From contig NC_135814.1 in NCBI RefSeq assembly GCF_964213995.1, positions 85,374,001 to 85,438,000 of the forward strand: a stretch of DNA of 64,000 nucleotides, read 5' to 3'. The DNA is from Mustelus asterias (lineage: Eukaryota). Shown here in pieces: positions 3,840 to 62,436 of this stretch (positions within the stretch are counted from its first letter, which is position 1; each line of letters opens with the position of its first letter). A program made the position numbers and the translations under genes. The notes below the pieces were generated by a model, which was not told the origin of the DNA, did not search any database, and saw nothing but the letters and a program-made list of their open reading frames with translations.

Positions 3840-4260
3840 GTTTCCTATCAATAATTGGGTACTTCTTGCTTTGTTTGCCCACCCCAAATGCATCATCTCA
3901 CCATTCTCAGTAAATGAATTCCATTTGGCACTTTTCTGCCCACCTGACCACCCTATTGATATATTCCTACAGTCTACAGCTTTCTTCAGCACTTTCAAAC
4001 ACACACCCAACTTTTGTATCATCTGAAAATTTCTTCATTATTCCCCCTACTAATGCCAGATCATTTATATGTACAACAAAACGCAAGGTACCTTATTCCG
4101 CGCTCCGCAGAACTGCACTGGAAACAGCCTTCTGATCATATATTATTAATTACCCTTTGCTTCCTGTCACTGTTCCAATTTTGGGCCTAACTTGCCACTT
4201 TCCCTTGAATCCTATGATCTGCTACTTTTCTGACCAGTCTGTCAAATTGGACCTTGTAGA
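3840..4260 (-). mobile_element. Old CR1 LINE reverse transcriptase fragment
   Basis: Degenerate RT-region translation (WNSFTENGEMMHLGWANK, cf. WQMEFNLDKCEVMHFGR). Confidence 0.55.
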
Positions 4261-4651
4261 TTCCGTTAAATGTGCCACATCATTGACCCTCTCTTGTTGC
4301 CTCCTTAGCGTCAAATTTTGTTTGATAACACTCCTGTGAAACCAGCTTGAGATTTTTTACTATGTCTGATGTATTATATAAATGTAAGTTCTTCTTCTTA
4401 TGTGCATGATGGATCCGCCATTTAAAATGGGACAACTAGTCCTAATAACTGATAGAGTAGTTTTTGGGTAAATTAAACTGTTTGAATCATTAAATGGTTG
4501 GTATACTTGGCGTGATGGTTAGTTTAATTATTCCGGGCAGTTAGACTGAGGTTGAAAATAATACTGTTAATTTAAAGATTATCTGCAAAATAGTAAGTGT
4601 TAAGATTGCTTTCACTCTTCCAGTAACTGGTTAGTTTAGTATCTACAATAT

Positions 4652-5265
4652 GGATAGGATTTTAATGGTAGCAAGCGAGAATCAGCGCCCAATGTGCAGC
4701 CAGAAACTCTTGAAATCCCACTGCCATTTAATGCTCACTCAGGCATTGATTGGCAGTGAGTGGGACTTCCAAATGCCCTGAGAAGGAAGTTGCACCTTTG
4801 AGTTGGCCAGGCACAGTGCAGCAGTGGTCAGAAGCGTACTGCAGTGCTCTGACTGGAACCAGTCCCGGCACATTTGAAATGCCAAGTCCCGCGGGCAGGA
4901 GGGTAAGGGACGCCCAGAAGGGAGGGTTGGGTGTGGTGGGGGGCTGGTCCTGGAGCGCCAATGCCCTGAGGGGGAGGAGGGGATCTTGTGAGCCACCCCC
5001 TCCTTTCCGACCAAGGTGGGAAAAGTGTAAATGTCACTTTGCCACTATGCTCGCTCCCGCCAGCCTGAAAATTGAGGCTGGGCAGGATAAGGCCCTTAGG
5101 TGGCCACTTAATAAGTGAATGGACAGGTTGCCCGCCCAAGGCCATGGTGCGTCCAAGTGTGAAATTGCATCTGGGTTGGGCGGGCAGGTTTCCGGCGGAA
5201 TTGCCATCCATTTAATTTTACTCTCACCCACCTGCCCACCTTATGGGGAGCATTAAGTTCAGCTC
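4652..5265. mobile_element. Degenerate non-autonomous DNA element (Harbinger-like)
   Basis: GC-rich island starting ggataggattttaa, ending taagttcagctc; shares ggcccttaggtggcca-type motifs with 355-973. Confidence 0.35.
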
Positions 5266-5336
5266 TATCTTACTCTTATCTAGTTACTTGTTCATCTGTC
5301 ACCCAACACATTTTCATAATTGTAAAAACCTAAAAT

Positions 5337-6630
5337 GAATTTGATTTGATTTATTATTGTCACATGTATTAACATACAGTGAAAAGTTTGTTTCGTGCAC
5401 GCTATACAGACAAAACATACCATTCATAGAGAAGGAAATGAGAGAGTGCAGAATGTAGTATTACAGTCATAGCTAGGGTGTAGAGAAAGATCAACTTATT
5501 GCAAGGTAAGTCCATTCAAAAGTCTGACAGCAGCAGGGAAGAAGCTGTTCTTGAGTCGTTTGGTACATGACCTCAGACTTTTGTATTTTTTTCCCGAAGG
5601 AAGAAAGTGGAAGAGAGAATGTCCGGAGTGCGTGGGGTCCTTAATTATGCTGGCTGCTTGCCGAGGCAGTGGGAAGTGTAGACAGAGTCAATGGATGTGA
5701 GGCTGGTTTGCGTGATGGATTGGGTTACATTCACGATCCTTTGTAGTTCCTTGCGGTCTTGGGCAGAGCAGGAGCCATACCAAGCTGTGATACAACCAGA
5801 AAGAATGCTTTCTATGGGGCATCTGCAAAAGTTGGTGAGAGTTGTAGCTGACATGCCAAATTTTCTTAGTCTTCTGAGAAAGTGGAGGCGTTGGTGGGCT
5901 TCCTTAACTATATTGTTGGCATGGGGGGACCAGGACAGGTTGTTGGTGATCTGAACACCTAAAAGCATGAAGCTCTCGACCCTTTCTACTTTGTCCCTGT
6001 TGATGTAGACAGGGGCATGTTCTCCTTTACAATTCCTGAAGTCGATGACGATCTCCTTCATTTTGTTGACATTGAAGGAGAGATTATTGTTGCCGCACCA
6101 GTTCACCAGATTCTCCATCTCATTCCTGTACTCTGTCTCGTCATTGTTTGAGATCTGACCCACTACGGTGGTGTCGTCAGCAAACTTGAAAATCGAATTG
6201 GAGGGAAATTTGACCGCACAGTCATAGGGTGTAAGGAGTATAGTAGGGGGCTGAGAACACAGCTTTGTGGAGCACCGATGTTCAGGATGATCATGGAGGA
6301 GGTGTTATTGCCTATCCTTACTGATTGTGGTCTGTGAGTTAGGAAGTTCAGGATCCAGTCGCAGAGGGAGGTGCCGAGGCTCAGGCCATGGAGTTTGGAG
6401 ATGTGTTTCGTAGGAATAATAGTGTTGAAGGCTGAACTGTAGTCAATAAATAGGAGTCTGATATAGGTGTCCTTGTTATCTAGGTGTTCCAGGGTTGAGT
6501 GCAGGGCCAGGGAAATGGCGTCTGCTGTGGACCTGTTGTGGCAGTAGGCAGACTAGTGGATCCAGGTAGTCCGGGAGGCTGGAATCGATTCGTGCCATGA
6601 CTAACCTTTCGAAGCATTTCATAATGATGG
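5337..6630 (-). mobile_element. Rex1/Babar-clade LINE, 5'-truncated
   Basis: RT motif FADDTTVVG plus C-terminal AHQRLHFLRRLRKFGMS...ESILSGCITAWYG (ORF 5645-6163); 3' end acatgtgacaataataaatcaaatcaaa. Confidence 0.85.
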
Positions 6631-7681
6631 AATAATGAATGCTGTTGTTATGAAGCTCTCTCTCCCAACTTAGAGAAAAGTTTTAGAGAAAGAGAAAAAT
6701 TCATTATCCTGGTCTCACTATCAGAAACATTCTCCAGATGCCGGAATTAATGGTGGTACAGTTAAGACTGCCAGGAGTTCAGACTTACCTATGAGAGTAA
6801 CTCCAAATGCAAGTTGAAGGATTCAGAGCGGGAGTGCAATCTTAGAGCCTACTCCTCTGTATCTACCTGGAATAAGAAGTTAAAAACAATGCAAAAACAT
6901 ATTAACCCTTTGCTTGGTCCACTCATCCACTGACTCTCACACTCAGGACTCCCACATCAATAACAGTGACTTTGTCGAGGGACCAGTTATTGCTATCTGT
7001 GGAATGATATCCAAGAAATTCTGAGAGGTGGAGTTACATTTTTTTACCATTAGGATACACTTGCTTTGGCAGAAACAATGGAAGAAGGTAATATAGAACA
7101 AGAGGTACTATAACAATTCGCCAATTCTGCTAATTTGACATGCAATAATACATTGAGACTAGATTACAACAGTAGTTCAGAACCATGTAATCAGCAAAGA
7201 TATGTGTATGTAGACTGATAAGTGCCAGTAACTTATAAGAAGCTTTCAAGTTTAATCAGGAAGTCGCTTCCCTAAGGGTCATCAAACTAATAAAATGTAG
7301 CAAGTCATAATAGATTTCCCATCACATACTCCAATCACAAGCTATAAATTTTTTCATTATGAAGAGAGCACAGTAATGGAGTGTGATGATGAACCAATAT
7401 GATAGCTATTCACCAAAAACATGCTGAATGAAACTGCCGATTCAATTCACAAAGGTAGTTTGTAGCTGAGCTATCCAGACAAGGAATTAGCAGACAAAAA
7501 TCCCAATCTCATCCAGGAGGCAGCAGAGATGCAGCAGTTGACATCAGTGTCTTGCACTAAGAAGGAGAAGAATCCAGGGGTGATCTAGTTTATTTCCATT
7601 ATTAGTGATCCCTGTTAGAAAGTATATATGCACGTTTGGGATAGAAATGTGTGTTTGTAGGTGATGCCATTGAATATAATC

Positions 7682-7980
7682 CTAGAATCCATACAGTGCA
7701 GAAGGAGGCCATTCAGCCCATCAAACATGCACTAGCAACAATCCTACAAGGCCCTATTCCCGTAACCCCTTGTATTTACCCTGCTAATCCCCCGACACTA
7801 AGGGGCAATTTTGCATGGCCAATCAATCTAAACCGCACATCTTTGGAGTATAGGAGGAAACCAGAGCACCCGGAGGAAACCCACGCAGACACGGGGAGAA
7901 CATGCGAACTCCACACAAGGCCGGATTTGAACCCGGGTCCCTGGCGCTGTGAGACAGCAGTGCTGACCACCATGCCACCC
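7682..7980 (-). mobile_element. HE1-like tRNA-derived V-SINE, CR1-type tail
   Basis: tRNA head (GTGGTCAGCAC...GGGTTCAAATCC), V domain gggtttcctccgggtgctc, tail gaatggcctccttctgcactgta. Confidence 0.9.
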
Positions 7981-9554
7981 TTAAATGTCATCTGTAGGTG
8001 AATAGATTACTAGTACGCACTGTACAAAATAGTGACTTAGATGAAGAATTAATTAACACACTTGGCACTGTACCTTAGCAGGTAACACATCATTAAGGAG
8101 TGCAAAGTGGAAAATTTGCAGTAATGGATAAAATAAACCACGTACCCATATTCAGCAAAATACTGACTGAGATGTCAAGTCTCAAATCATATTGGGTTCT
8201 GTATGCTGAAGGCAAATATTAAGAGCAGATACATTAGGCCAGATTTTCGTCTCCCAAAGGAGGTGCGAATCAGGTCATGAAATACAAAACTTCATTTTCT
8301 TTGCAGGAAAAACAATTTTCATCTGTCTTCCTGACCTCATACCATTTTTTGTCTGGCCTTTTGGCGGGTCAGGAAGGCCTTGGGTGCAAGGGTTTCAGGA
8401 TCCCCACTATGAGGAGCACAGGAAAATTGCATTCCCTTCCACACACTATTTTTGTGTACTGGTGTGGGTTTTGTAAGTCCAACACAAAGGCATCTTTTTG
8501 GAGAATTTGCGACCACTGGAGGAAGCCTGACTGGGATAATTTTGAAAGGTAAGTGTAGAATGTTTTGGCTCCTTCAGATGTGTCACTATTAGGTGCTATG
8601 TTGTAATGTAGATGTATTTTTAATGCTATGATTCATCAAAGAGATTTGTCCTGCAAGGTATTGATCAGCATCATTTTAATTGCTGTCATGTTTTCAGGAC
8701 TTTTCCAATGGTCAAAGTGCCATAATGCATTAACAATGTAAAACAAAATGCTCTGTTAGCCTCTGCTATCATATTTTGTACAGTGATTTAAATCCACTGA
8801 CCACTCTGGCTGTTTAAAAAAAACACCTGCTTTTGAAAGTTGAAAAAATCTCTGCACCTGCTCCCCTCCATTGATTGAAATTCTTTGAAATGGAAATGGG
8901 ACATCATTCTAATTTGGAAGGCACAGTAGTTGGAAGCCTTTGTTATGACAGCTGTAGCCATTAGGAATGCTTGCCTGCATTTCCAAAGCTGTTCATGGGT
9001 TCAGCTCAGCAGGTGGTCTGTTGATCCAAGAATAGTTGAAGTTTTTAAGAGGTTGTAATAACAGAATTTCCTCTGACGTGATTTCTTGTTTGTTTAAGAC
9101 CTTTCCTGTGCTGGAATCCAGTATCAATGATGGTGTATTTGAATTTAGGATTTTATTTATTAGATTATTAGAGATTTAATTTTCCCAATGATTTTAAAAT
9201 AATTTGTATTGCTATTGCATGGTTCCTGAAGATTGCTCAATGTGCACATTGAGTGAGTGGCTATAGAGGAATCATATTGGCATGGATGATCTAAGGGAGC
9301 ATGAGGTGGCAAGGTGCATTGGTAGGGGTGCGAGTGTGAGGTGTAGATGGTCTTTAAATGGTGTTGGGCGCTAGCCTGCTGTGCTAGAAAACTGGAGTGG
9401 GCCTTTTGACCAGGCCACCTCCACACCCACATTTGTCAATCACTCCATCACGGCTCACAAAATGTATTATGAACCAAAATCTTGTGTAAAAAGACAAAAA
9501 TCACGGACAAAGTCACACATGGGTTGGGTATGCATTTCAGAAGGTGCAAAAGGT

Positions 9555-11995
9555 GACCATAATTCTATCAGTTTTAAGATAACTGTGGAGAATGATCGGT
9601 CTGGCCCAAAAGTTAAAATTCTAAATTGAGGCAAGGCCAATTTTGATGGTATCAGGCAGGAACTTTCAAAAGTTAATTGGGGGAGTCTGTGGGAAGGCAA
9701 AGGGATGTCTGGTAAGTGGCAGGCTTTCAAAAGTGTGTTAACCAGGGTTCAGGGTAAACACATTCCTCTTAGAGTGAAGGACAAGGCTGGTAGATATAGG
9801 GATGTCTTGGGATATTGAGGCCCTGGTCAAGAAGAAGAAAGAGGCACATGACATGCATAGGCAGCTGGGATCAAGTGAATCCCTTGAAGAGTATGGGGGT
9901 GTAGGAGTAGAGTTAAGAGAGAAATCAGGAAGGCAAAAAGGGGACACAAAATCGTTTTGGCAGATAAAGCAAAGGAGAATCCAAAGAGCTTCTACAAATA
10001 CATAAAGGGCAAAAGAGTAACAAGGGAGAGAGTCGGGCCTCTTAAGGATCAACAAGGTTTTCTGTGTGCAGATCCATAAGAGATGGGTGAGATGCTAAAT
10101 GAATATTTCTCATCGGTATTTACTATTGAGAAAAGCATGGATGTTAGGGAACTTGGGGAAATAAATAGTGATGTCTTGAGGAGTGTACATATTACAGAGA
10201 AGGAGGTGTTGAAAGTCTTAAAGCGCATCAAGGTAGATAAATCCCCGGGACCTGATGACGTGTATCCCAGGACATTGTGGGAGGCTAGGGAGGAAATTGC
10301 GGGTCCCCTAGCCGAGATATTTGAATCATCGATTGTCACAGGTGAGGTGCCTGAAGATTGGAGAGTGGCAAATATTATGGCTTTGATTAAAAAGGGCTGC
10401 AGGGAAAAGCCTGGGAACTACAGGCCAGTGAGCCTCACATCTGTGGTGGGTAGGTTGTTGGAAGGTATTTTGAGAGACAGGATCTACAGGCATTTAGAGA
10501 TGCAAGGACTGATTAGGGACAGTCAGCATGGCTTTGTGAGTGGAAAATCATGTCTCACAAATTTGATTGAATTTTTTGAAGGGGTAACCAAGAAGGTAAA
10601 TGAGGGCAGTGGAGTTGATGTTGTCTACATGGACTTTAGCAAGGCCTTTGACAAGGTACCGCATGGTAGCTTGTTGCATAAGGTTAAATCTCACGGGATC
10701 CAGGGTGAGGTATCTAAATGGATACAAAATTGGCTTCTTGACAGAAGCCAGAGGGTGGTTGTAGAGGGTTGTTTTTCAAACTGGAGGCCTGTGACCAGCG
10801 GTGTGCCTCAGGGATCAGTGCTGGATCCACTGTTATTTGTCATTTATATTAATGATTTGGATGAGAATATAGGAGGCATGGTTAGTAAGTTTGCAGATGA
10901 CACTAAGATTGGTGGCATAGTGGACAGTGAAGAAAGTTATCTCCAATTGCAATGGGATCTTGATCAATTGGGCCAGTGGGCTGACGAATGGCAGATGGAG
11001 TTTAATTTAGACAAATGCGAGGTAATGCATTTTGGTAGATTGAACCAGGGCAGAACTTACTCAGTTAATGGTAGGGCTTTGGGGAGAGTTACAGAACAAA
11101 GAGATCTAGGGGTACATGTTCATAGCTCCTTGAAAGTGGAGTCACAGGTGGACAGAGTGGTGAAGAAGGCATTCGGCATGCTTGGTTTCATCGGTCAGAA
11201 CATTGAATACAGGAGTTGGGACATCTTGTTGAAGTTGTACAAGAAATTGGTAAGGCCACACTTGGAATACTGTGTGCCGTTCTGGTCACCCTGTTATAGA
11301 AAGGATGTTATTAAACTAGAAAGAGTGCAGAAAAGAATTACTAGGATGCGACCGGGACTTGATGGTTTGAGTTATAAGGAGAGGCTGGATAGAAACCCTA
11401 CAGTACAGAAAGAGGCCATTCAGCCCATCGAGTCTGCACCAACCACAATCCCACCCAGGCCCTACCCCCATATCCCTACATATTTTACCTGCTAATCCCT
11501 CTAACCTACGCATCCCAGGACACTAAGGGGCAATTTTTAGCATGGCCAATCAACCTCACCCGCACATCTTTGGTCTGGGACCAAACTGGGACTTTTTTCT
11601 CTGGAGCGTAAGAGGCTGAAGAGTGACCTTATAGAGGTCTATAAATTAATGAGGGGCATAGATCAGCTAGATAGTCAATATCTTTTCCCAAAGGTAGTGG
11701 AGTTTAAAACTAGAGGGCATAGGTTTAAGGTGGGAGGGAAGAAAGTGTCCAGAGGGGCAATTTTTTCACACACAGGATGGTGAGTGTCTGGAACAAGCCG
11801 CCAGAGGTAGTAGTAGAGGTGGGTACAATTTTGTCTTTTAAAAAACATTTAGAGAGTTACATGGATAAGATGGGTATAGTGGGATATGGGCCAAATGCAG
11901 GCAATTGGGATTAGCTTAAGGCTTTAAAAAATAGAGTGGCATGGACAAGTTGGGCCGAAGGGCCTGTTTCCACGCTATAAACCTCTATGACTCTA
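9555..11995 (+). mobile_element. CR1 (HER1-like) LINE, 5'-truncated, RT ORF 10083-11390 interrupted by a SINE
   Basis: KSPGPD, NYRPVSLTS, QHGFVSGKSC, DFSKAFDKV, GVPQGSVL and KFADD motifs; 3' end gggccgaagggcctgtttcc...ctctatgactcta. Confidence 0.95.
11389..11573 (-). mobile_element. 3' part of HE1-like SINE inserted in the CR1 RT
   Basis: CR1 sequence gaggctggatag|actgggactttttt is split by this SINE tail. Confidence 0.9.
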
Positions 11996-33090: not shown

Positions 33091-33282
33091 GATTGGGATT
33101 TGATACAGTGCCACACAACAGACCTGTGAGAAAAATTATAACTCATGGAGTAGAAGTAGCAATGTGGATACAAAATTGGCTGAGTAATGGGAAATAGAGA
33201 GTAACGATTAGTGGATATTTTTAGGGCTGGAGGAAGTTTGGAGTGGAGTAACGGTATTGGGACCCTTTCTGTAGTGGAATTC

Positions 33283-34514
33283 ATGATGTGGAGATGCCGG
33301 CGTTGGATTGGGGTAAACACAGTAAGAAGTCTCACAACACCAGGTTAAAGTCCAACAGGTTTATTTGGTAGCAAAAACCACTAGCTTTCAAAGCGCTCGC
33401 TGCTCCTTCGTCAGGTGAGTGGTCTTTCAGTTCACAAACAGGACACATAAAGACACAAACTCAATTTACAAAATAATGGTTGGAATGCGAGTCTTTACAG
33501 GTAATCAAGTCTCAAAGGTACAGACAATGTGAGTGGAGAGAGGGTTAAGCACAGGTTAAAGAGATGTGTATTGTCTCCAGCCAGGACAGTTAGTGAGATT
33601 TTGCAAGCCCAGGCAAGTCGTGGGGGTCACAGATAGTGTGACATGAATCCAAGATCCTGGTTGAGGCCGTCCTCATGTGTGCGGAACTTGGCTATCAGTC
33701 TCTGCTCAGCGACTCTGCGCTGTCATGTGTCGTGAAGGCCGCCTTGGAGAACACTTACCCGAAGATCAGAGGCCGAATGCCCATGACCACTGAAGTGTTC
33801 CCCAACAGGAAGAGCGGTGTCGAGCGGTGTTCATTCATCTGTTGTCGTAGCGTCTGCATGGTCTCCCCAATGTACCATGCCTCGGGACATCCTTTCCTGC
33901 AGCGTATCAGGTAGACAACGTTGGCCGAGTTGCAAGTGTATGTACCGTGTACCTGGTGGATGGTGTTCTCACATGAGATGATGGCATCCATGTCGATGAT
34001 CCGGCATGTCTTGCAGAGGTTGCTGTGGCAGGGTTGTGTGGTGTCATGGTCACTGTTCTCCTGAAGGCTGGGTAGTTTGCTGCGGACAATGGTCTGTATG
34101 AGGTTGTGCGGTTGTTTGAAGGCAAGAAGTGGGGGTGTGGGGATAGCCTTGGCGAGATGTTCGTCTTCATCAATGACATGTTGAAGGCTCGGGAGAAGAT
34201 GTTGTAGCTTCTCTGCTCCGGGGAAGTGTTGGACGACGAAGGGTAACTCTGTCCATCGTGTCCTGTGTTTGTCTTCTGAGGAGGTCGGTGCGGTTTTTTG
34301 CTGTGGCACGTCGGAACTGTCGATTGATGAGTCGAGCGCCATATCCTGTTCTTATGAGGGCATCTTTCAATGTCTGGAGGTGTCTGTTGTGATCCTCCTC
34401 ATCTGAGCAGATCCTGTGTATACGGAGGGCTTGTCCGTAGGGGATGGCTTCTTTAACGCGTTTAGGGTGGAAGCTGGAGAAATGGAGCATCGTGAGGTTA
34501 TCCATGGGCTTGCG
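33283..34514 (-). mobile_element. Penelope-like element (Neptune type), 5'-truncated
   Basis: 12-bp TSD gtagtggaattc (33271-33282 / 34515-34526); HPKRVKEAIPYGQALR thumb region, C-x4-C-x2-C linker (PCHSNLCKTC) and GIY-YIG VVYLIRC...WYIGET. Confidence 0.93.
33379..33417 (-). ncRNA. Minimal type I hammerhead ribozyme motif (PLE-type)
   Basis: Minus strand CAC-CTGACGA-A-GGAGCAGCGAGCGCTTT-GAAA-GC-TA-GTG. Confidence 0.6.
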
Positions 34515-36627
34515 GTAGTGGAATTCCCCATGGGTTAGTATTGGGGCCCTTACTTTTCCTGATATGTATTAATGATCGAGATCTTCTATTCATACATGGG
34601 TGTTGTGTGTTGCTGGCTAAGCATCCCATTGCCCTTGAAGTGAATGGCTTGCTAGGTCATTACAGAAGACATTTAAGTGTCAAGTGAGTCTGAATTCTCA
34701 GGTAGGCCAGATCAGATAAGGATGCTTCTATACCTTATGGCCTTATTTACCAATCTGATTGAAGAATCGTTAAATGAGTACCACGGAGGCTGAACCAGAA
34801 AGTGTCTTCTGGAATATTTAATTCAATTTTAAGGCAGGTGCAGAAAGCAAAATAAAGAGAGGAAAACTGGGATTAAGAGACAGAGGGCAAGAAAAAAAGA
34901 CAAAGAAATGATTGGGGGAGATTAACTGGCCCCACTGGTGCAGCACAGATCCCGTTCTGGCCAGAGACACTTGCCGGGGGAGGGAGCTCATTTGGAGATT
35001 CTTCCTGGCTCCTGCCGGCGGCAACGTAACCTGATTCAGGCCCAGCGAGGGTGTAAACCAGGTTAGCATATGTAAACCTTCATTTAAATATGCAGGATCT
35101 GTTTTAAACTAGATTCACCTGGCTCCAGAATCCACTCACCCACCAGCACAACGTGAAGCCAGTGGGAAGCACTACAGACCTCACAAGTAGAGACATGATG
35201 ACCATGCCAGGAGAGTGGGGTGGGGGGGAGCTCAGAGGCCATTGAGTGGTCAGGGACATGGCTGAGCAATGCCCGAGCACTTCCCACTGGCCACCCTCAG
35301 TTTGGCACTGGCAAGGTGCTGGGGGAAGTGCCAGGTTGGCACTGCCACGGGATGGGGCCTGAAAGGAGGAAAATCTGAAGGGGGCTGAGCATGAGGGGCA
35401 GGGCGTGAGGTGGTGGGGCCTGAAGGTTTCTGAAGGGGAAGAGGCCTGAGGAGAGGGCCTTTGTTGACCCCATAGCAGGGTCTCACTCACGTGACGGGGG
35501 GAGCACTGAGAAAGGGCTCTGAGGAATGCGGGACCTAATGCTGGACAGTGGGCGAGGGGGCCTTTAACCCGGTGTCTTTAAGCCCCACCCCTCTCATTAA
35601 CAACGCAAATCATGCTCCCCCCAAAAGAAAATGGGGAAGGATTGTGATAGCGATCATGCCAACCAATCCAGCAGGAATTATACCGTGTTTCCCACTGGAA
35701 CTGACACTTAGGCATTTATTTTGGAGAATTGAGCCCATTGTTTTTAAATCTCTAAAAATGATGAAAATCTGAAGGAATTAGATTCCACACTTGTAAAAGC
35801 TGATTTTTAGAGCCAGAGATTTGTTTGGCAATAATTCAGATTTATCGCACCATTAAAAATTACACAGGAATGCACAAGCCCTACCCTTATTCCAGCATGT
35901 TTTGTGTATATTTATCATGTAAGTATAGAATCTTTCATGCCATTCCATCCGTTTGAATGTCAAGCCTATTGAGGGGATATAAAAAAGTTACTGGAGTAGC
36001 AGGGTAACTCGGATAGAAATATTTGGATTTCTGTATGTGGGTGCAGGTAGCAGATGTTGCCATCTGATTGACACTCAAATCACGTTAAGTGCTATTAGCC
36101 TCACCATTATTTCTACAGCAATTCCACACCATAACAAAAGCACAACAGAAATAGATTTCAATTTATAGGCAAATCTTAACTTGTATGAATTTCAGTACCA
36201 TATAAAGCATTTCAATTCAGTGATCTATGACTTCTTTATCACCAATTCATGAAATTGCATTAATATCAAATAATATAATGCTTACCGCAATCTAGTTCCT
36301 TGAATCATTTGTAGATTTTTCTCTAATTTTTTAGCAATATCAAAATAGCCATAGTATCCTTTTGTGAACATCATGGTGCACAGCACTGAGACTTTCTAAC
36401 ACCAAGAAAATGGCAAGAAATACTGGAACATTAACAGGAATGCTGAAAGGATTTAGCTCTAGCTCCACATTTCACACACAAAAGTCATATTACATAAAAT
36501 AGCAGACACCAGGAATGACTTTTAACGTTCTAAACTAATCACAAGAGTCAGATGATGCTCTCCAAACCTCATAATCAAATAATACCTCACTGGTGAGGGC
36601 TGGAGAGCAGTCCAGGGTAGGGAGGAC

Positions 36628-39248: not shown

Positions 39249-39392
39249 GGACGCGATTTTCCCCAAACAAAACTAAGGCTGACCATTCACGCCAGTGGGA
39301 ATCTCTGCTCCCGCTGCAATGAATGGGAATTTGGCTGAGCGCCAAATTCTCCGTCCTTTCTCGCAGAGGCGGCGGAGCGGAAAATTCTAGCC
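39249..39392. mobile_element. Probable Harbinger-type MITE
   Basis: Ends ggacgcgattttcc / ggaaaattctagcc. Confidence 0.5.
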
Positions 39393-39489
39393 TAAGTGTC
39401 ATAACAACGAGAAAACCAGAGTGACCTGCACCGGACCCACTGACGCAGTGCAGACTGCAGTCATCCAACACTCAGTGACTTTTGGGAGA

Positions 39490-40203
39490 GCATGTCGGAT
39501 CATCAACACGGATGCCATCATCTCACGTGAGAACACCATCCACCAGGTACACGGTACATACTCTTGCAACTCGGCCAACGTTGTCTACCTGATACGCTGC
39601 AGGAAAGGATGTCCCAAGGCATGGTACATTGGGGAAACCATGCAGACGCTACGACAACGGATGAATGAACACCGCTCGACAATCACCAGGCAAGACTGTT
39701 CTCTTCCTGTTGGGGAGCATTTCAGTGGTCACGGGCATTCGGCCTCTGATATTCGGGTAAGCGTTCTCCAAGGCGGCCTTCACGACACACGACAGCGCAG
39801 AGTCGCTGAGCAGAGACTGATAGCCAGGTTCCGCACACATGAGGACGGCCTCAATCGGGATCTTGGGTTCATGTCACACTATCTGTAACCCCCACAACTT
39901 GCTTGGACTTGCAAAGTCTCACTGGCTGTCCTGTCTGGAGACAATACACATCTCTTTAACCTGTGCTAAATGCTCTCTCCACCCACATTGTCTGTACCTT
40001 TAAGACTTGATTAGCTGTAAAGACTCGCATTCCAATCATTATTCATTATTCTGTAACTTGAGTTTGGGTCTTTATATGCCCTGTTTGCTGTTTGTTAGCA
40101 GATCTCCCACTCACCTGACGAAGGAGCAGTGCTCTGAAAGCTAGTGCCGTTTGCTACCAAATAAACCTGTTGGGCTTTAACCTGGTGTTGTTAGACTCCT
40201 TAC
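39490..40203 (+). mobile_element. Penelope-like element 3' fragment (GIY-YIG + pseudo-LTR)
   Basis: ORF to 39888: VVYLIRCRKGCPKAWYIGETMQTLRQRMNEHRS...VGEHF...GLN. Confidence 0.92.
40112..40146 (+). ncRNA. Minimal type I hammerhead ribozyme motif (PLE-type)
   Basis: CAC-CTGACGA-A-GGAGC-AGT-GCTCT-GAAA-GC-TA-GTG: stem I CAC/GTG, intact core, palindromic AGCT stem III. Confidence 0.7.
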
Positions 40204-42819: not shown

Positions 42820-43852
42820 AGAGTCATAGAGGTTTACAGCATGGAAACAGGCCCTTTGGCCCAACTTTTCCATGCCGCCCCTTTTTTAACCCCAAAGCAA
42901 GTCCCAATTGCCTGCGTTTGGCCCATATCCCTCTATACCCATCTTACCCATGTAATTGTCTAAATGCTTTTTAAAAGACAAAATTGTATCTGCCTTTACT
43001 ACTACCTGTGGCAGCTTGTTCCAGACACTTAACACCCTCTGTGTTAAAAAATTGCCCCTCTGGATCCTTTTGTATCTCTCCCCTCTCACCTTAAACCTAT
43101 GCCCTCTAGTTTTAGACTCCCCTACCTTTGGGAAAAGATAATGACTATCTAGCTGATCTACGCCCCTCATTATTTTATAGACCTCTATAAGATTGCCCCT
43201 AAGCCTCCTGCGCTCCAGAGAAAAAAGTCCCAGTCTATCCAGCCTCTCCTTATAACTCAATCCATCAAGTCCCGGTAACATCCTAGTAAATCTTTTCTGC
43301 ACTCTTTCTAGTTTAATAATATCCTTTCCATAATAGGGTGACCAGAATTGCACACAGTATTCCAAGTGTGGCTTTACCAATGTCTTGTACAACTTCAACA
43401 AGACGTTCCAACTCCTGTATTCAGTCTTCTGACCGATGAAACCAAGCATGCCGAATGCCGTCTTCACCACTCTGTCCACCTGTGACTCCACTTTCAAGGA
43501 GCTATGAACAGGTACCCCTAGATCTCTTTGTTCTGTAACTCTCCCCAACGCCCTACCATTAACTGAGTAAGTCTTGCCCTGGTTCAATCTACCAAAATGC
43601 ATCACCTCGCATTTGTCTAAATTAAACTCCATCTGCCATTCGTTAGCCCACTGGCCCAATTGATCAAGATCCATTGCAATCCTGGAAACCCTCTTCACTG
43701 TCCACATGCCACCAATCTTGGCGTCATCTGCAAACTTACTAACCATGCCTCCTAAATTCTCATCCAAATCATTAATATAAATGACAAATAACAGTGGACC
43801 TAATACAGATCCCTGATGCACACCACTGGTCACAGGCCTCTAGTTTGAAAAA
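42820..43852 (-). mobile_element. CR1 (HER1-like) 5'-truncated copy
   Basis: ORF 42886-43833 (GVHQGSVLGP, KFADD). Confidence 0.95.
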
Positions 43853-45327: not shown

Positions 45328-46353
45328 TTAGGCTCTTCAGCCTATCAGCGGGCATTGCAGAAAAACATCAGACTGTTTGGTGGGGTTCCCTTAGACATTG
45401 AAAGGTGGTGGTGACTTGAAAGCAGTTTGGACTTATCTCCTTATTGTCTGGCCTGAAGTTTCTGAACTTGAGAGTGAGAGGCCCAGGCGGCGAGGACGAG
45501 GCTGCTGAGCCAGGGCGAGAGCAGAGGCCAGGGGAGGCCAGATAAAGCCAACAACAGCAGCCAGGCAGCCAGCCAGGAACATACAAGTTGGTCAAAATTC
45601 AAAGCCTGGCCACCCAAGCAAGAGATAAGCAGTCAGGCGGTGCATGGGCCAGACAGGCACCAACATTGTTTTCACGGAGCAGTGGCCAACTCAACCAGAG
45701 GCCATGGCTGAGAGTGAGGAGGGCTGGGCAACCAGACTGACAAGGGTGAGAGCAGGGACCAGGCCAGAGAACCAGCAGCGGTAACCAGTGAGCCACCAGC
45801 TTGCCTGCAAGCTTAGGTCATCAAGGGAGCAGCTGCAGGAGCGACATGGCCCCCAGGCCAGAGCTGAGGAGGGCTGGGCAGGCGAGGGTGAGGCCAGACC
45901 ATAGCCAGGCAGCCTGAGCCAGCAGTGAGGCAAAGTGTTCGAGGTCAGCAGGGACAATTTGACCCCCAGGGCTGAGAAGGGCAAAGAGGCCTGCTCTTTC
46001 TGAAAATTCATATTTGTTGAAATGAAGATCAATCAATTAACATGAAGTGACACTACAAATCTGGCCAAAATGCAGAAAGTTGAAGGTGAAACAAGAGGAT
46101 GAAGCTGGGCAAAAGGTAAAGGTTTGAAGTATTGAGCAGTGCCTAAACTGCACGTTCATCCCCAACAACAACATCCACCACAGGTTTTGATGATTTGTCT
46201 GATTGCTTTGACCTGCCAATTTCTGGAGCCAACACATCACCTGAAAAACTTGAACCAGAAGTGGACTCTGAAATGGGAATGGAACTACAAGATAATGCTC
46301 AAGCTCATTCTTCTGTAGCTGAAGTGAGGGGAGAAACCCATCCTGAAGAGTAT

Positions 46354-46483
46354 GGGTGGGATTTTAAGGCCTCGCTCGAGCAAGACCGGGAATTCCCAGC
46401 CGAGGTCAACGGAGATTTCCGTTGTTGGACCTTCACCCGTTCCGATTCCGATTCCGTGGCGGGTGATGTGGTAGAGTTCCAGC
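46354..46483. mobile_element. ~130-bp Harbinger-type MITE
   Basis: Ends gggtgggatttt / agagttccagc; possible TSD TAT (46351-46353, 46484-46486). Confidence 0.55.
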
Positions 46484-46595
46484 TATTGTCTTATGGCCAA
46501 AATCAGTATCACTGGGTCTGACTGAATATTTTGTAATTAACAGGGGGGTTGCTGGACAGGTGGGAGAGTGGGAATGCCTTGGCTTTCTTGGGGGA

Positions 46596-48409
46596 AGCAC
46601 AGTAAGAAGTCTCACAACACCAGGTTAAAGTCCAACAGGTTTATTTGGCAGCACGAGCTTTCGGAGCACTGCCCCTTCATCAGGTGAGTGGGAGTTGTGT
46701 TCACAAACAGGGCATATAAAGACACAGACTCAATTTACAAGATAATGGTTGGAATGCAAATCTTTACAGGTAATCAAGTCTTAAAGGTACAAACAATGTG
46801 AGTGGAGAGAGGGTTAAGCACAGGTTAAAGGGATGTGTATTGTCTCCAGCCAGGACAGTTAGTGAGATTTTGCAAGCCCAGGCAAGTCATGGGGGTTACA
46901 GATAGTGTGACATGAACCCAAGATCCCGGTTGAGGCCGTCCTCATGTGTGCAGAACTTGGCTATCAGTCTCTGCTCAGCAATTCTGCGTTGTCATGTGTC
47001 GTGAAGGCCATCTTGGAGAACACTTACCCGAAGATCAGAGGCTGAATGCCCATGACTGCTAAAGTGTTCCCCGACTGGAAGGGAACACTCCTGCCTGGCG
47101 ATTGTCGAGCAGTGTTCATTCATCCGTTGTCATAGCGTTTGCATGGTCTCCCCAATGTACCATCTTTTCCTGCAGCGTATCAGGTAGACAACGTTGGCCG
47201 AGTTGCAAGAGTATGTACCCGTGTACCTGGTGGATGGTGTTCTCACGTGAGATGATGACATCCGTGTCGATGATCTGGCACGTCTTGCAGAGGTTGCTGT
47301 GGCAGGGTTGTGTGGTGTTGTGGTCACTGTTCTCCTGAAGGCTGGGTAGTTTGCTGCGGACAATGGTCTGTTTGAGGTTGTGCGGTTGTTTGAAGGCAAG
47401 AAATGGGGGTATGGGGATGGCCTTGGTGAGATGTTAGTCTTCATTGATGACATGTTGAAGGCTCCGGAGAAGATGTCGTAGCTTTTCCGCTCCGGGGAAG
47501 TACTGGACGACGAAGGGTACTCTGTCCGCCGTGTCCCGTGTTTGTCTTCTGAGGAGGTCGGTGCAGTTTTTCACTGTGGCGCATCGGAACTGTCGATTGA
47601 TGAGTCAAGCGCCATATCCTGTTCTTATGAGGGCATCTTTCAGTGTCTGTAGGTATCTGTTGCGATCCTCCTCATCCGAGCAGATCCTGTGTATACGGAG
47701 GGCTTGTCCGTAGGGGATGGCTTCTTTAACGTGTTTAGGGTGGAAGCTGGAGAAGTGGAGCATCGTGAGGTTATCCGTGGGCTTGCGGTACAGTGAAGTG
47801 CTGAGATTACCTTCCTTGATGGAGATGCGTGTGTCCAAGAATGCAACCGATTCCGGAGAGTAGTCCATGATGACTCTGATGGTAGGTTGGAACTTGTTGA
47901 TGTCATCATATAGCTGTTTCAATGATTGTTCGCCCTGAGTCCAAAGGACGAAAATATCATCGATGTATCTAGTTATAGTGTCGGTTGAGGGTCCTGTGCG
48001 GTGAAGAGGTTTTTTTCGAACCTGTGCATAAAGATATTGGCATATTGAGGTGCGAATTTGGTCCCCACGGCTGTTTCGTGCGTCTGGATGAAGAACTGGT
48101 TGTTGAAGGTGAAGACGTTGTGGTCCAGGATGAAGCGGATGAGTTGTAGAATTGCATCTGGAGATTGGCAGTTGTCGGCGTTGAGTACTGAGGCAGTTGC
48201 AGCAATGCCGTCGTCGTGGGGGATGCTGGTGTAGAGTGCCGAGACATCCATTGTGACGAGGAGTGTTCCTGGTTCAACTGCTCCATGTGTGCTGAGTTTC
48301 TGTAGGAAGTCCGTAGTGTCACGACAGAAGCTGGGGGTTCTTTGTACAATGGGTCTCAGGATGCCCTCGACGTAGCCGGAGAGGTTCAACGCCGGCATCT
48401 CCACATCAT
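46596..48409 (-). mobile_element. Penelope-like element (Neptune type), RT + GIY-YIG, with inverted terminal tail
   Basis: 15-bp TSD ggctttcttggggga (46581-46595 / 48410-48424); RT motifs MDVSALYTSIP, GTKFAPQYANIFM, YIDD; stops and frameshifts present. Confidence 0.95.
46652..46686 (-). ncRNA. Minimal type I hammerhead ribozyme motif (PLE-type)
   Basis: Minus strand CAC-CTGATGA-A-GGGGC-AGT-GCTCC-GAAA-GC-TC-GTG. Confidence 0.7.
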
Positions 48410-48759
48410 GGCTTTCTTGGGGGAGACAGGTTTGAGTGGAAAAGTTGCCTGTTCCTTGTGTGGCCTCACTGCAGTTTGGAGTGTGATGATGTCCAGTGAG
48501 GTTAGGGATCACCTAACCCAGAGACCATGGGTGGGTCAGGGGGAGCAGGGGCCTGTGTCTGTGACCCTTCCACCTCACTCCTGGAGGAAGCAGCTCCTGC
48601 AAGCTGCATTGGAGAGGGTTCGTCAGTCTTCAAACACTATATGATTCAGGAATAAGGGAGGACTCGAGGGCAACAGGGTGTTTGACAATGCGGAGTGTCT
48701 CTCTCTCGCTCTATTGCTCTGTCTCTCTCTCTCTCTCCCTGCCCTCCCCCATTCTCCCC

Positions 48760-49420
48760 TTCATAGGGAGACGGTGCAGCATCTGTGCCAGGCGTTAACT
48801 CATCTGGCACCTGCAGGAGGAGGAGGAGGATACCTGTTCCCAGTGGCCTTGGAAGGTCACAGCTACCTTGAACTTTTGTGCAATTGGATCATTCCAGGAA
48901 TCGACTGGGGACCTGTGCGGTATATCTCAAACCTCCAGGCACAGGTGCATTCGTGAAGTGACAGATGCCCTGAGTGTTCGGGCATCTGATTATATCACCT
49001 TCCACCTGGACCCGGCTCACCAGGATGCCCAGGCTGAAGGATTCTCTGCCATCGCCAGGATGCCCCTGATCCAGGGGGCAATAGATAGCACCCATGTCGC
49101 CCTTCGTGCTCCGTCTCAACATGGGGTGTCCTTCATTAACAGGAAGGGGTACCACTCTATGAATATCCAACTGGTGTGTGACCACCTCATGAACATCATA
49201 CATGTCTGTGCACACAATCTGGGAGCATGCACGACTCCTACATCTTGGGACAGTCGGAGATATCCGACATGTTCAAAGGTCACCCTCAGCCGAGAGGATG
49301 GCTAGTGGGGGACAAGGACTACCCGTTAAGGTCATGGCTGATGACACCTGTGTAGAGGCCCCAGACTGAGGGGGAAACCCATTACAATGAGGCCCACTCT
49401 GCCACTAGGAGCATAGGTGT
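48760..49420 (+). mobile_element. PIF/Harbinger DDE transposase relic (HARBI1-like)
   Basis: LNFCAIGSFQ..TGDLCGISQ, QGAIDSTHV, FINRKGYHSMNIQLVCD, then after a frameshift WLVGDKDYPLRSWLMTP..YNEAH; internal stop. Confidence 0.88.
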
Positions 49421-57803: not shown

Positions 57804-58121
<318 letters not shown>

Positions 58122-58561: not shown

Positions 58562-58651
58562 CTAGTCTGATGACTAGTCAGTCTGAAAACTAAGCATGGC
58601 ACAGAAATGTCCCCTTCAAATACTGAGTTAACTGCATGTAATTATTTATAG

Positions 58652-58712
58652 AACAACCAAGCTGCTGCCTATGCAGATTGATGGGGAGCCCTGGATGCAG
58701 CCTCCTTCTACT
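58652..58712 (+). CDS. DGKG: Next internal coding exon (61 bp) of the same diacylglycerol kinase
   Basis: Acceptor attatttatAG (58650-58651) and donor ACT|GTAAGT (58713). Translation (R)[20 protein letters not shown] contains the DAGKa signature PMQ(I/V)DGEPW. The split codon AG|A = Arg is in frame with the previous exon. KLLP and MQP resemble DGKG. Confidence 0.95.
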
Positions 58713-58841
58713 GTAAGTGTTAATTCTACCTATTTCTGTGGTTGTGCTATTGTGCGACACAATATGAATACATCTACTCTCTCATACCTGCCGCCACTGA
58801 CTCACCTTTGTGTTATTTAATGATTTGTTAAAAATACCACC

Positions 58842-59074
58842 TTTTTAAAAGAATTTTTACTTCATTCTTAAAGTTACAAAGCCAATGCTCAGAGTGTACA
58901 TGGCGGACCCAAATCCATCACCCTGCTTACTCCAAAAACCAAATCCAAATTGAGTCCATTTCATGGTCCCCACAAGAGAGAGACAAGCAAGACCCAAGCT
59001 GACAAGCTAAGGCATTGCATCCCATCTTGAGTTTGATCTGACGCTTGATCTTAGCCAAAAGATCAAGAAGCGAT
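58842..59074 (-). pseudogene. U2 snRNA-derived retroposed element (divergent full-length U2-like sequence with internal insertions)
   Basis: The minus strand starts ATCGCTTCTTGATCTTTTGGCTAAGATCAAG (U2 5' end is ATCGCTTCTCGGCCTTTTGGCTAAGATCAAG). It continues with stem II-like CTTGTCAGCTT...GGGGACCAT, Sm-site-like GGTTTTTGGAG, CAGGGTGATGGA and an A-rich tail. Flanking direct repeats ttaaaaataccacc (58828-58841) / ttaaaaatagcacc (59079-59092). Confidence 0.8.
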
Positions 59075-60666
59075 GATATTAAAAATAGCACCATAGGAAA
59101 CACCATCTGCATTTTAAGGCATGATTTTCTCTCAATGAGGGGGATGGGCCGAGGGTAAGGAATGAAGAGAGCTCATCAATGTGGAGGAGCCCTCCAGCAT
59201 TTCTAAATCTTAAATAAAAAAAGGGATCCTGCAGTCATGCACCATTTTCAGCTGGCAAGGGCCAGCTGCCCTTCCACCATCTGCCGTGGTGGGATTTGAT
59301 TAAGTGTATTGGCCATGCTAAATTGCCCCTTAGCGTCAGGGGGATTAGTAGGATAAATGCATGGGGTTAGGGTCTGGGTGGGATTGTTGTTGGAGCAGGC
59401 TCGTTTGGCCGAATGACCTCCTTCTGCACTGTCGGGATTCTATGATTTCCTTCCCTAAAAGACATTAGTGAACCAGGTGGGTTTTTGTGACAATCTGTAA
59501 TGGTTTCATGGTCATCAGTAGATTCTTAATTCCAGATTTTTTAAATTGAATTCAAATTCCACCATCTGCCGTGGCAGGATTCGAACCCGGGTCCTCAGAA
59601 CATGGGCTGAAGTTCTGGATTAATTAATTGTCTAGCGATAATACCATTTGGCCATCACCTCCCCATAATCAAGCTTGAACATACACAACTCCTGGAAGCA
59701 TAACTTGTCAATCAAGCTCACTATCCCGCCCCCACCCCACCCCATCCCATAAATGTTTGGGATTTTCTTTAGAGGCATGGGGAATAAAATTCAATTTCAG
59801 CAAGTGCACAAAATGAGTGGTATTAGGTCTGCCACCCATTACTGTTTGATTGACTAAACCACAGAGGATAAATGTAATTAACATTGAGCAACAACCTTCT
59901 AAAAATTTGAAGCTGGGTACTGTATTATTTTGAGTAGTGATCACTTCTCATTAACTATTTTTTGTCTTGTAAATATCTGCCAAAAGCATTTTCTTTAAAC
60001 ATTTCACTTCTTTAAAATAAGCAGTTGCATTTAATCCCCCGTTTTGGATTCCTCTCAGTCCTTGCAACCTGTTCCCAGGGCCTCTGCCAAATCTGGTCTC
60101 GATCTGACCACTAGAACATGTGCAGGAGCAGCCCTGGAGCGTAGGGAAGCAGCTTACCATCTGTTCAGTGCCTCACCTCACTGGCACACTCAAGATTGGG
60201 AATTACCATGTGGTGGCATTAACCCACCACTTCATGTGTGGCACATTGAGGAGTTTGGCACTACCACCACAGAGCTGCATGTGACCAGTGGAAAATGGTG
60301 TATTTGATTTGATTTGATTTATTATTGTCACATGTATTGGGATGCAGTGAAAAGTATTGTTTCTTGCACTATACAGATAAAACATACCATTCATAGAGTA
60401 CATAGGAGAGAAGGAAAGGAGAGGGTGTAGAATATAGTGTTACAGTCACAGCTAGGGTGTGGAGGAAGATCAGCTTCATATATGGTAGGTTCATTCAAAA
60501 GTCTGATGGCAGCAGGAAAGAAGCTGCTTTTGAGTCGGTTGGATTTGTATCGTTTTCCTGAAGGAAGAAGGTGGAAAAGAGTATGCCCGAGGTGCGTGGC
60601 ATCCTTAATTATGCTGGCTGCTTTTGTGAGGCAGCAGGAACTGTAAACAGAGTCAATGGGTGGGAG

Positions 60667-61000
60667 AAACATAGAAACCCTACAGTGCAGAAGGAGGCCA
60701 TTCGGCCCATCGAGTCTGCACTGACCACAATCCCACCCAGGCCCTACCCCCACATATTTACCCGCTAATCCTTCTAACCTACGCATCCCAGGACTCTAAG
60801 GGGCAATTTTTAACCTGGCCAATCAACCTAACCCGCACATCTTTGGACTGTGGGAGGAAACCGGAGCACCCGGAGGAAACCCACGCAGACACGAGGAGAA
60901 TGTGCAAACTCCACACAGACAGTGACCCGAGCCGGGAATCGAACCCAGGACCCTGGAGCTGTGAAGCAGCAGTGCTAACCACTGTGCTACCGTGCCGCCC
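60667..61000 (-). mobile_element. HE1-like V-SINE, CR1-type tail
   Basis: Near-identical to the 52080 copy. Confidence 0.93.
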
Positions 61001-61418
61001 ACACGGCTGGTTTGCGTGATGGACTGGGCTACGTTCACGAGCCTTTGTAGTTTCTTGCAGTCTTGGTCAGAGCAGAAGCCGTACCAAGCAGTGAGGATGC
61101 TTTCTATGGTGCATCTGTAAAAGTTGGTGAGAGTCGTAGCAGGCATGTCAGTTTTGCTAAGCGTCCTGAGAAAGTAGAGGCATTGGTGGGCTTTATCAAC
61201 TATAGCACCAGCATGGAGGAGCCCGGACAGGTTGGTGGTGATCTGGATACCTAGAAACTTGAAACTCTCGAGCATTTCCATTTCACCACTGTTGATGTAG
61301 ACGGGCATGTTCTCCACAACGCTTCCTGAAGTCAGTGACTATCTCCTTCATTTTACTGACATTAAGGGAGAGATTATTGTCATCGCACCATTTCATCAGA
61401 TTCTCATTCCTGTACTCT

Positions 61419-62436
61419 GGGCCCGATTTTAAACAGGCGCAAAAACATGGTAAAGGATGGTGTGAGGCCATTAACGCGATCCGCCCCCGCCTCCACGCAG
61501 ATGGTCACTTTACTGAGACCCGGGAATGGCCACGATCCGATTCGTGCCTGAAACGGGTGCAACGGCGATTTAAATTCAAGTGCATGCATTTAAATTGAAT
61601 GAATGAACTGCCCAACTTTATCAGCATTTCCCCCTTTACCATCGCGTTCACCGATCCGGAATCGCGCCGAAATGGACATGCTGAATAAAAGTCTGTTTCG
61701 GGCACTCCAGCTGCTGAAGAGGCGAGTTCAGAGCTTCAACGGCTCCCTGACTCAGATCGGTGGTGGGGGCAGTCGGGGGTGGGGGGGGGGGGGGGGGGGG
61801 GCAGGTCAGATCATTCTCTGGTGAGGTGGGGGGGAGGGAGGAGGGAGGCGGGTCAGATGTACCTCTGGGGGAGGGGGGGGAGGAGTGAGGCCAGATCATT
61901 GTCTGGGGGGAGGAGGAGGAGTGAGGCCAGATCATTCTCTGGGTGGGAGGGGGGGAAGTGAGGCCACATCCTTCTCTGAGGTGGGGCGGGGGGGTGGAAA
62001 TGAGGCCAGATCATTGTCTGGGGGGGGGGGGCAGGAGGGAGATGGGTAAGATGTATCTCTGGTGGGGGGACAGGGGGTTCCACTGCCACTCTGCGGGCGA
62101 TCGGTGGGGGGGAAGAGGGCACGGGGTGGGTGGATAAGGGGGACAGTGATGTCTGTGAGGGCCATCGCTCCCGCTTTTCATTTCCGTGCTGCTTTCTCCA
62201 CTTTCTGCAGCCCGGGAGCGATTGACATGGGCGCGCTTTTTCAATTTTTTTCTAACTGAGCAATTCAGAGCTCCGATCGTTTCAGGTGCACTAAGCCCCG
62301 CCCTCAGCACGATTCAGGCTCACGATTTTTTTTTTCAGGCTAAGTGCTAATGAGGGCGCCAGAAAGCAGATTTCCAAGTCGGATCTGAATTGCGCCCAGA
62401 TTCAGCACTTAGAATGAAAATGGTAAAATCAGGCCC
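61419..62436. mobile_element. Complete 1018-bp non-autonomous Harbinger-like DNA transposon
   Basis: TIRs gggcccgatttta / taaaatcaggccc; TSD TCT (61416-61418, 62437-62439), confirmed by the empty site cattcctgtactctgtctcg at 6121-6140; internal G-rich tandem units gaggccagatcatt. Confidence 0.9.

Follow-up and report, generated by a model that had tools for sequence, protein, structure and literature searches.

The question raised by this locus is what kind of sequence can be collinear with the U2 snRNA over its whole length, as the minus strand is between 59074 and 58855, and at the same time carry two inserts, a degenerate branch-point recognition region, an A-rich tail, and a target-site duplication (TSD). 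The original prediction held that the template of this retroposed copy was already a modified U2, belonging to a SINE-like family or to an expressed variant snRNA. The analysis reported here, which covers a 64-kb stretch of DNA (the window, hereafter) and sequencing runs of four species, agrees with the first of these two options, since both inserts are common to many copies in all four runs. That the element belongs to a multi-copy family of U2-derived retroposons, and that this family is a real feature, can be regarded as nearly certain; it is best read as a SINEU-like retroposon that arose independently in elasmobranchs.

Genomic setting

The element is 233 nt long (58842–59074), is antisense to a diacylglycerol kinase gene, and is likely intronic, this last point being given as likely only because no later kinase exon was found in the window. 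One exon of this gene (58652–58712, plus strand), for which there was no PDB match, has its splice donor 115 bp from the element, while the preceding exon (58000–58120, plus strand) matches the Pfam domain DAGK_acc, and a long (CA)n-like repeat lies between the two. They are consecutive exons at the end of the accessory domain, and no further exon of the gene was detected in the window.

The window also contains a variety of other repeats. A 290–350-bp repeat, found at 7663–7986 and in about a dozen similar stretches (12–16 self-matches in the window), is probably the common elasmobranch SINE, and a second repeat type occurs at 59298–59594, 200 bp upstream of the element. CR1-type LINE fragments are located at 10080–11495 and 42886–43839. 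A single protein search with a CR1-type LINE frame of the window makes an elasmobranch the likely host: among the 120 matches listed, this frame has 64–67% identity to the best named ones (Scyliorhinus, Hemiscyllium, and Hypanus), 54% to a second Hypanus sequence, 38–54% to those of birds and turtles, and 68–86% to unnamed and bacterially labelled ones. In addition, there are fragments of Penelope-like elements with a GIY-YIG domain (33281–34568, 39391–39888, and 46588–48512), a piece of a DDE_Tnp_4 transposase (48799–49305), LINE fragments with an ALKBH8_N domain (5645–6552 and 60307–61419), and, outside the mapped repeats, a 124-codon acidic open frame on the plus strand (46147–46521) with no Pfam match.

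Likeness to U2 snRNA

The collinearity with the whole of U2, as originally proposed, was recovered with the Rfam model RF00004, whose positions 1–192 align with 59074–58852 on the minus strand (25.7 bits, E = 0.0078 in a search of 1.3 kb). The alignment extends past the first ~31 nt, in keeping with the prediction, but its score is below the gathering score of 46 bits, and no Rfam match in the 64-kb window is at gathering level. As reference U2 genes we used L001, L033, and L036, which score 173–184 bits with the same model and are the most vertebrate-like of 45 loci, although they are not shark genes. These 45 loci (L001–L045) are eukaryotic U2 genes, some of them in tandem arrays, found as contamination in prokaryote genome assemblies.

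Compared with the three references, the head of the element is identical at 28 of 31 positions and its body at about 61% (89/145 and 89/143, or 86/140 for U2 nt 34–188), with transitions making up most of the body mismatches. When the first 34 nt are removed, the score of the body is reached by 0, 2, and 0 per 1000 shuffled sequences, and random stretches of the window reach it in 3, 1, and 1 cases per 1000; it is because this score is so rarely reached that homology to U2 can be claimed beyond the head. With BLASTN, 24 of 25 distinct U2 sequences match the first 34 nt only, while L001 adds a weak match in the body (E = 0.018). Neither Rfam nor ARAGORN reported a tRNA, 5S, or 7SL match to the element, and the 64-kb window holds one U2-derived copy.

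Scans with exact motifs, namely a U2 motif and the 3′ motif of the element in viral contigs and its 5′ motif in metagenomes, gave zero matches, the 5′ motif having included changes private to this copy. One metagenome locus that came up in the 3′ motif scan, L046, was rejected as a relative because the 21 nt that match are attributable to chance.

Anatomy of the copy

All the features described here are read on the minus strand. The copy is flanked by a 5′ TSD at 59079–59092 and a 3′ TSD at 58828–58841, identical at 13 of 14 positions, so that the 14-bp duplication with one mismatch is confirmed along with the A-rich tail; a repeat as long as this was found in 2 of 1500 control intervals. The TSD was examined at this one copy, and the letter at 59078, which differs from the window in the orthologous contigs of species C, D, and F, lengthens it to 16 bp and then, after a 2-nt gap, carries it up to U2 +1; the 5′ duplication probably reaches 59075.

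The U2 head (nt 1–31) occupies 59044–59074. Its letters are canonical in the family as a whole, and only this copy has the changes at 59062, 59063, and 59065. These three changes are all transitions and create a perfect 9-bp inverted repeat within 59044–59067, possibly by quasi-palindrome correction or else by chance.

The head is followed by insert 1 (59020–59043), 24 nt made of two 12-nt units that resemble U2 nt 20–31 at 8/12 and 5/12 positions in this copy, and at 9/12 and 6/12 when the commonest letters of the family are used (P = 4e-4 and 0.054 for the likeness of the two units to U2). A lag of 12 is also the strongest periodicity in the interval 59055–59019 (14/25). Regarding its position, the alignment scores 42 with the gap after U2 nt 31 or 34, 36 after nt 39 or 40, and 30 after nt 38, and since the best placements are those after nt 31 or 34, the insert precedes the branch-point recognition region or falls within it. 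The insert had been foreseen, but as 25–30 nt placed right after that region. Similarly, the GTAGTA described as lost is indeed displaced and degenerate, yet it is still there: the equivalent of U2 nt 32–38 is found at 59013–59019, and its letters at 59018–59013 are kept in 3 cases of 6, with three transitions.

Downstream, the equivalents of stem IIa (4 of 6 pairs) and stem IIb (6 of 6) span 58966–59012 and lead to a linker (58939–58965) that includes insert 2, made of short repeated units. The spacing from stem IIb to the U-run is 27 nt in the element and 15 in U2, which gives 12 extra nt for this insert, within the 10–15 expected before the Sm site. The Sm-site remnant (58932–58939) has five U after G instead of A, both here and in the family, while the A is present in L001, L033, and L036. 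Stem III (58891–58922) has 8 of 11 pairs in this copy and 11 of 11 with the commonest letters of the family, and the equivalent of stem IV (58859–58888) has an 8-nt deletion in its loop, a feature additional to those noted earlier. The copy ends with an A-rich tail (58842–58858, 10 A in 17 nt) interrupted by a T-run, so that its layout is A-run, T-run, A-run.

The family in sequencing runs

Contigs of the runs X1, X4, X6, and X13, from species A, C, D, and F, respectively, were mapped onto 58570–59260 at 80% likeness. These are 4 of the 19 listed runs, one per species; 18 runs, from seven studies, contain words of the element, and species B and E and the further samples, with 2–4 sampled words each, lie outside the mapping. 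The contigs mapped were 4175, 3699, 2593, and 2392 in X1, X4, X6, and X13, and their summed depth was 535–163,000 in bins inside 58834–59073 against 0–36 outside, the depth of a single-copy contig being about 16, 6.5, 5.4, and 2 in the same order. Depth is high throughout both inserts in the four runs, which makes them common to the contigs of the family, and neither insert is present in L001, L033, or L036.

The two ends of the element are equally well defined. Past 59074 the depth drops more than 200-fold in each run, and at 59061 there are loose ends in at least 96, 87, 79, and 65 contigs, which continue with U2 nt 5–13 (canonical except for a single CpG-type change in one of the four runs) before entering unrelated flanks, whose agreement is 0.39–0.44 in the loose-end rows listed, with no shared leader there. 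At the other end, the loose ends at 58842–58855 are T-rich on the plus strand, that is, they are A-tails, in at least 285, 209, 203, and 249 contigs, and the 3′ flanks beyond them are long with low mutual agreement (0.33–0.45, loose-end rows listed). These loose-end figures come from 24 of 1009 rows, 59074 itself not being among them, and the letter differences discussed below from 40 of 108. Because depth is confined to the element and the loose ends enter unrelated flanks, the family is interspersed and self-contained.

As for its size, the peak depth gives crude bounds of 130–350 copies if k-mer overlap is maximal and 3,900–10,800 if there is none, bearing in mind that depth is not copy number. 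The family comprises hundreds of interspersed copies at least and probably thousands, and the loose-end counts reach the 100 or more interspersed copies by which SINEBase recognizes a family.

Other observations concern the variation among copies. Positions 58900 and 58906 are mixed at near 40–60%, and a 1-nt indel occurs at 58919, in all four runs, which suggests either subfamilies or CpG decay. Single contigs are head-to-tail dimers of the element (59063 to 58855 in X1, and 59061 to 58843 in X4), an arrangement also described for SINEU-3, and X4 has a loose end at 58918, near the Sm-site remnant. The T-interrupted tail is partly common to the copies, with 59–74 contigs in three runs matching to 58842/58843, and because this interruption is partly shared the tail was probably DNA-encoded in the masters. 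The same sharing led us to set aside the oligoadenylation of defective snRNA, as treated in the accessible part of PMC7328512, as the sole source of the tail.

Age of the insertion and ancestry of the family

The insertion is old, and this locus is shared between species. The 5′ junction is bridged by contigs in species D (42 letters inside the element) and F (212 letters inside, at depth 2), while a contig of species C is one letter short of the 31-letter rule, and a contig of species D coming from the 3′ flank reaches 16 letters into the tail. The orthologous contigs differ from the window by 3.7–7.6%, and no empty site was seen in the mapped runs of the four species.

This copy differs from the commonest letters of the family by about 20–22 changes in 220 nt (~10%), including those at loose ends. 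Among the 18 rows listed, after dropping 58900 and 59042, there are 16 sites where at least half of the X1 depth differs from this copy. Four of them are within the inserts, and at the other 12 the letter of the family is the letter of U2 in 10 cases when compared with L036, in 8 with L033, and in 9 with L001. All 31 nt of the head are canonical in the family, against a body diverged by ~30%, and the probability of a 31/31 head, had it diverged like the body, is 1e-5 to 1e-3.

Comparison with known elements

SINEU-3 of crocodilians, according to the accessible portion of its description (PMC4494074), counts ~1,600 copies with a 32-bp U2 head, some of them inserted in tandem; it contains T-runs, its promoter is not known, and SINEU elements in general carry poly(A) tails. 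Besides tandem insertions and T-runs, the present family has in common with SINEU-3 that it is short, A-tailed, and TSD-forming, that it includes a U2 5′ piece of ~32 nt, and that its copies share a structure which the U2 gene does not have. However, SINEU-3 has its own ~50-bp internal deletion and a ~40-nt non-U2 3′ end, and 90% of its copies reside in Mariner-N4_AMi, as far as the same partial source goes, whereas the present family keeps U2 to the 3′ end, has gained ~36 nt by insertion, and has no shared target by the agreement of its flanks (0.33–0.45, loose-end rows listed), even if a weak preference is possible. Since structure, target, and vertebrate class all differ, an origin independent from that of SINEU-3 is likely. 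In SINEU-1 and SINEU-2, snRNA heads were repeatedly added at the 5′ end and partly duplicated, which is the pattern that we infer for insert 1; these elements differ in having, in the description available, portions of U1 or a long 3′ half unrelated to snRNA, neither of which is found here. Overall, the element has the traits of the SINEU class, namely an snRNA head, a length below 500 bp, a high interspersed copy number, an A-tail, and shared rearrangements. The class is also characterised by its dependence on a Tx1-clade LINE for mobilisation.

Ordinary snRNA retropseudogenes, in the sections available (PMC5322556, PMC4494074), also start at U2 +1, have TSDs, and are mobilised in trans by LINEs, but they copy the cellular U2 and are mostly 3′-truncated and tailless, while many of the copies described here are full-length and tailed and share indels that U2 lacks. 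The retrotransposons Keno (of the Tx1 clade) and Utopia, which insert between U2 nt 38 and 39 in the part of the account that is accessible (PMC4640811), operate no more than a few bases from the junction of the element, and an origin of insert 1 from them had been considered. Such an origin is disfavoured, because the placement at nt 38 scores 30 against 42 and because the insert resembles U2 itself; moreover, Keno and Utopia are kilobase protein-coding elements, and insert 1 is 24 nt of U2-like sequence that fits better after nt 31 or 34. A 20-bp U2 duplication of the Utopia type was rejected as well, being unlike a 24-nt insert with a period of 12.

The tRNA- or 5S-type heads and LINE-derived tails of HE1 and SacSINE1 set these SINEs apart from the present family, as they are not snRNA-derived, although the likely host group is the same. 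Both are known elasmobranch SINEs in the portion of PMC10468316 that was available. The SINEBase definition, as given in the accessible text of PMC3531059, asks for a head at least 60% identical to tRNA, 5S, or 7SL RNA and for a Pol III internal promoter; the element lacks such a head and, by this partly available definition, is not a classical SINE.

Kojima described no SINEU outside crocodilians in the text available (PMC4494074), and the accessible part of a 2017 review places snRNA-headed SINEs under Crocodilia only (PMC5381603). Our literature search, run mostly on papers available without subscription, found no report of an snRNA-derived SINE in sharks or rays, though an entry in Repbase or Dfam may exist; nor is a shark snRNA SINE mentioned in the available portions of PMC13343379, PMC5753468, and PMC5786205.

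Origin and propagation of the family

We consider it probable that this locus is an old copy of an abundant, A-tailed family composed throughout of remodelled U2 sequence, with a master likely driven by a U2 promoter and copies likely made by a LINE of the L1/Tx1 type.

Regarding transcription, we lean slightly towards a master under the external promoter of a U2 gene, whose first 31–34 nt would have been joined to an older and eroded U2-derived body. The reasons are that no usable internal promoter is apparent, that T4–T5 runs able to stop Pol III are found inside the element (T4 at U2 nt 15–18, 59060, and T5 at the Sm site, 58938), and that the copies start at U2 nt 1–5 with no shared leader in the loose-end rows listed. 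U2 genes have an external Pol II promoter, according to the part of PMC4494074 that is accessible. Scattered copies, this one included, would lack a promoter and be for the most part inactive. There is no octamer in the 300 bp upstream of the element, a scan that is uninformative because none occurs either in the 168–232 nt upstream of three control genes.

The main alternative keeps the same family and has its masters transcribed from flanking host or transposon promoters, with the heads acquired by template switching during reverse transcription. Kojima proposed flanking promoters for SINEU-2, where 5′ extensions are shared, and the accessible text names no promoter in any SINEU (PMC4494074). 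The partly shared T-interrupted tail, pointing to a tail encoded in the DNA of the masters as in a retrocopy, and the presence of head-to-tail dimers also speak in its favor. Nevertheless, the 5′ loose ends listed have no shared leader (agreement 0.39–0.44) and the depth falls more than 200-fold past 59074, and we regard this alternative as rather unlikely.

Returning to a master with a U2 promoter, the head may have been renewed more than once. We are inclined to believe that the three 12-nt units are the trace of new U2 heads added one after another, a process that predicts a falling gradient of likeness among them; from the head to the third unit, the likeness to U2 is 12/12, 9/12, and 6/12 with the family letters (12, 8, and 5 in this copy). 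Recurrent 5′ additions of U1 and U2 heads are documented for SINEU-1 and SINEU-2 in the available description (PMC4494074). The third unit, however, is marginal (6/12, P = 0.054), so that a plain tandem duplication, with the head maintained by selection or by gene conversion, fits equally. More speculatively, and at present rather doubtfully, the retroposon might re-enter U2 genes at nt 31–34, regaining each time both a head and an external Pol II promoter and so making up for the promoter that snRNA-derived SINEs lack; insert 1 would then be the fossil record of these events, and the master might persist as a gene for a structured, U2-headed, non-splicing RNA.

The mobilisation step is the one on which we feel most confident: target-primed reverse transcription by a protein of the L1/Tx1 clade, and not by the CR1-type LINEs of the window, appears quite likely because the element has an A-tail, a 14–20-bp TSD, and no LINE-derived 3′ end. 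The 3′ end of the element has no likeness to any repeat of the window, and the 132 window ORFs scanned with Pfam, out of 137 with at least 85 aa, yielded no L1/Tx1-specific domain. The TT/AAAA target motif of mammalian L1, as given in the accessible part of PMC5322556, is absent from the left flank of this copy, which is one site.

A further alternative is that the copies are processed pseudogenes of a useful U2-derived gene for a non-spliceosomal small RNA, presumably comparable to a BC1/BC200-like master, whose fold is kept by selection. With the family letters, 37 of the 41 base pairs of U2 are preserved, compared with 33 in this copy, and the 30 of 34 pairs in the body exceed the neutral expectation (P = 0.003–0.07 for 31–20% divergence). 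The head, which in real U2 pairs with U6, is canonical. On the other hand, G-U wobbles account for 11 of the 37 pairs, the registers were picked by hand, and the reference U2 genes are not from sharks; the whole copy folds unremarkably, that is, no better than its shuffles (z = −1.37), and the sites at ~50% (58900 and 58906) together with the indel at 58919 indicate that there was more than one master, several being the usual case for a SINE. There is a weak hint that the fold of the master was kept, and we consider this explanation improbable.

Even less probable is a Pol III-transcribed SINE whose B box was created by the first duplication. With the commonest letter of the family at 59030, the stretch 59038–59030 fits the B-box consensus by hand inspection, and the A-run, T-run, A-run layout of the tail is similar to that of polyadenylated Pol III SINEs. 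Such a match is cheap, however, because U2 itself supplies 8 of its 9 letters; this copy has no B-box match, and the T4 (U2 nt 15–18) and T5 (Sm site) runs would stop transcription early, an argument also found in the available part of PMC4494074.

That the source was a working variant of U2 snRNA with altered branch-site specificity, the second option of the original prediction, is very hard to reconcile with the family. The canonical head and five recognisable stems would suit it, and embryo-specific snRNA variants exist in zebrafish, although in the part of that study that is accessible their mRNA-binding sites are unchanged (10.1101/858944). Here, instead, the branch-site region is degenerate and 24 nt away from the U6-pairing head, the Sm site has lost its A, loop IV is deleted, and RF00004 gives 25.7 bits where real U2 genes score 173–184. 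Each of the three functional sites is damaged, whether in the family or in this copy, and nothing indicates that the family rescues them; it has no intact branch-point sequence, Sm-site A, or loop IV.

Lastly, a one-off decayed pseudogene, or a U2 gene scarred at this place by Keno or Utopia, would agree with the single copy in the 64-kb window, the sub-threshold Rfam score, and a gap after nt 38–40, but the former is refuted, and either has next to no standing, because in each of the four runs the inserts are common to thousands of contigs with unrelated flanks.

Significance

The family is present in four species, which are likely sharks or rays. The accessible text of the description of SINEU elements (PMC4494074) leaves open how they are transcribed. 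This question becomes testable with a second vertebrate family, apparently of independent origin, in which both ends of U2 are kept exactly, since one would expect to find its master as a U2-like gene bearing the elements of an external promoter. In practical terms, hundreds to thousands of "U2" matches in elasmobranch annotations may be this element, and the family offers a set of non-tRNA markers for the phylogeny of sharks and rays, of which the insertion described here, common to several species, is an example.
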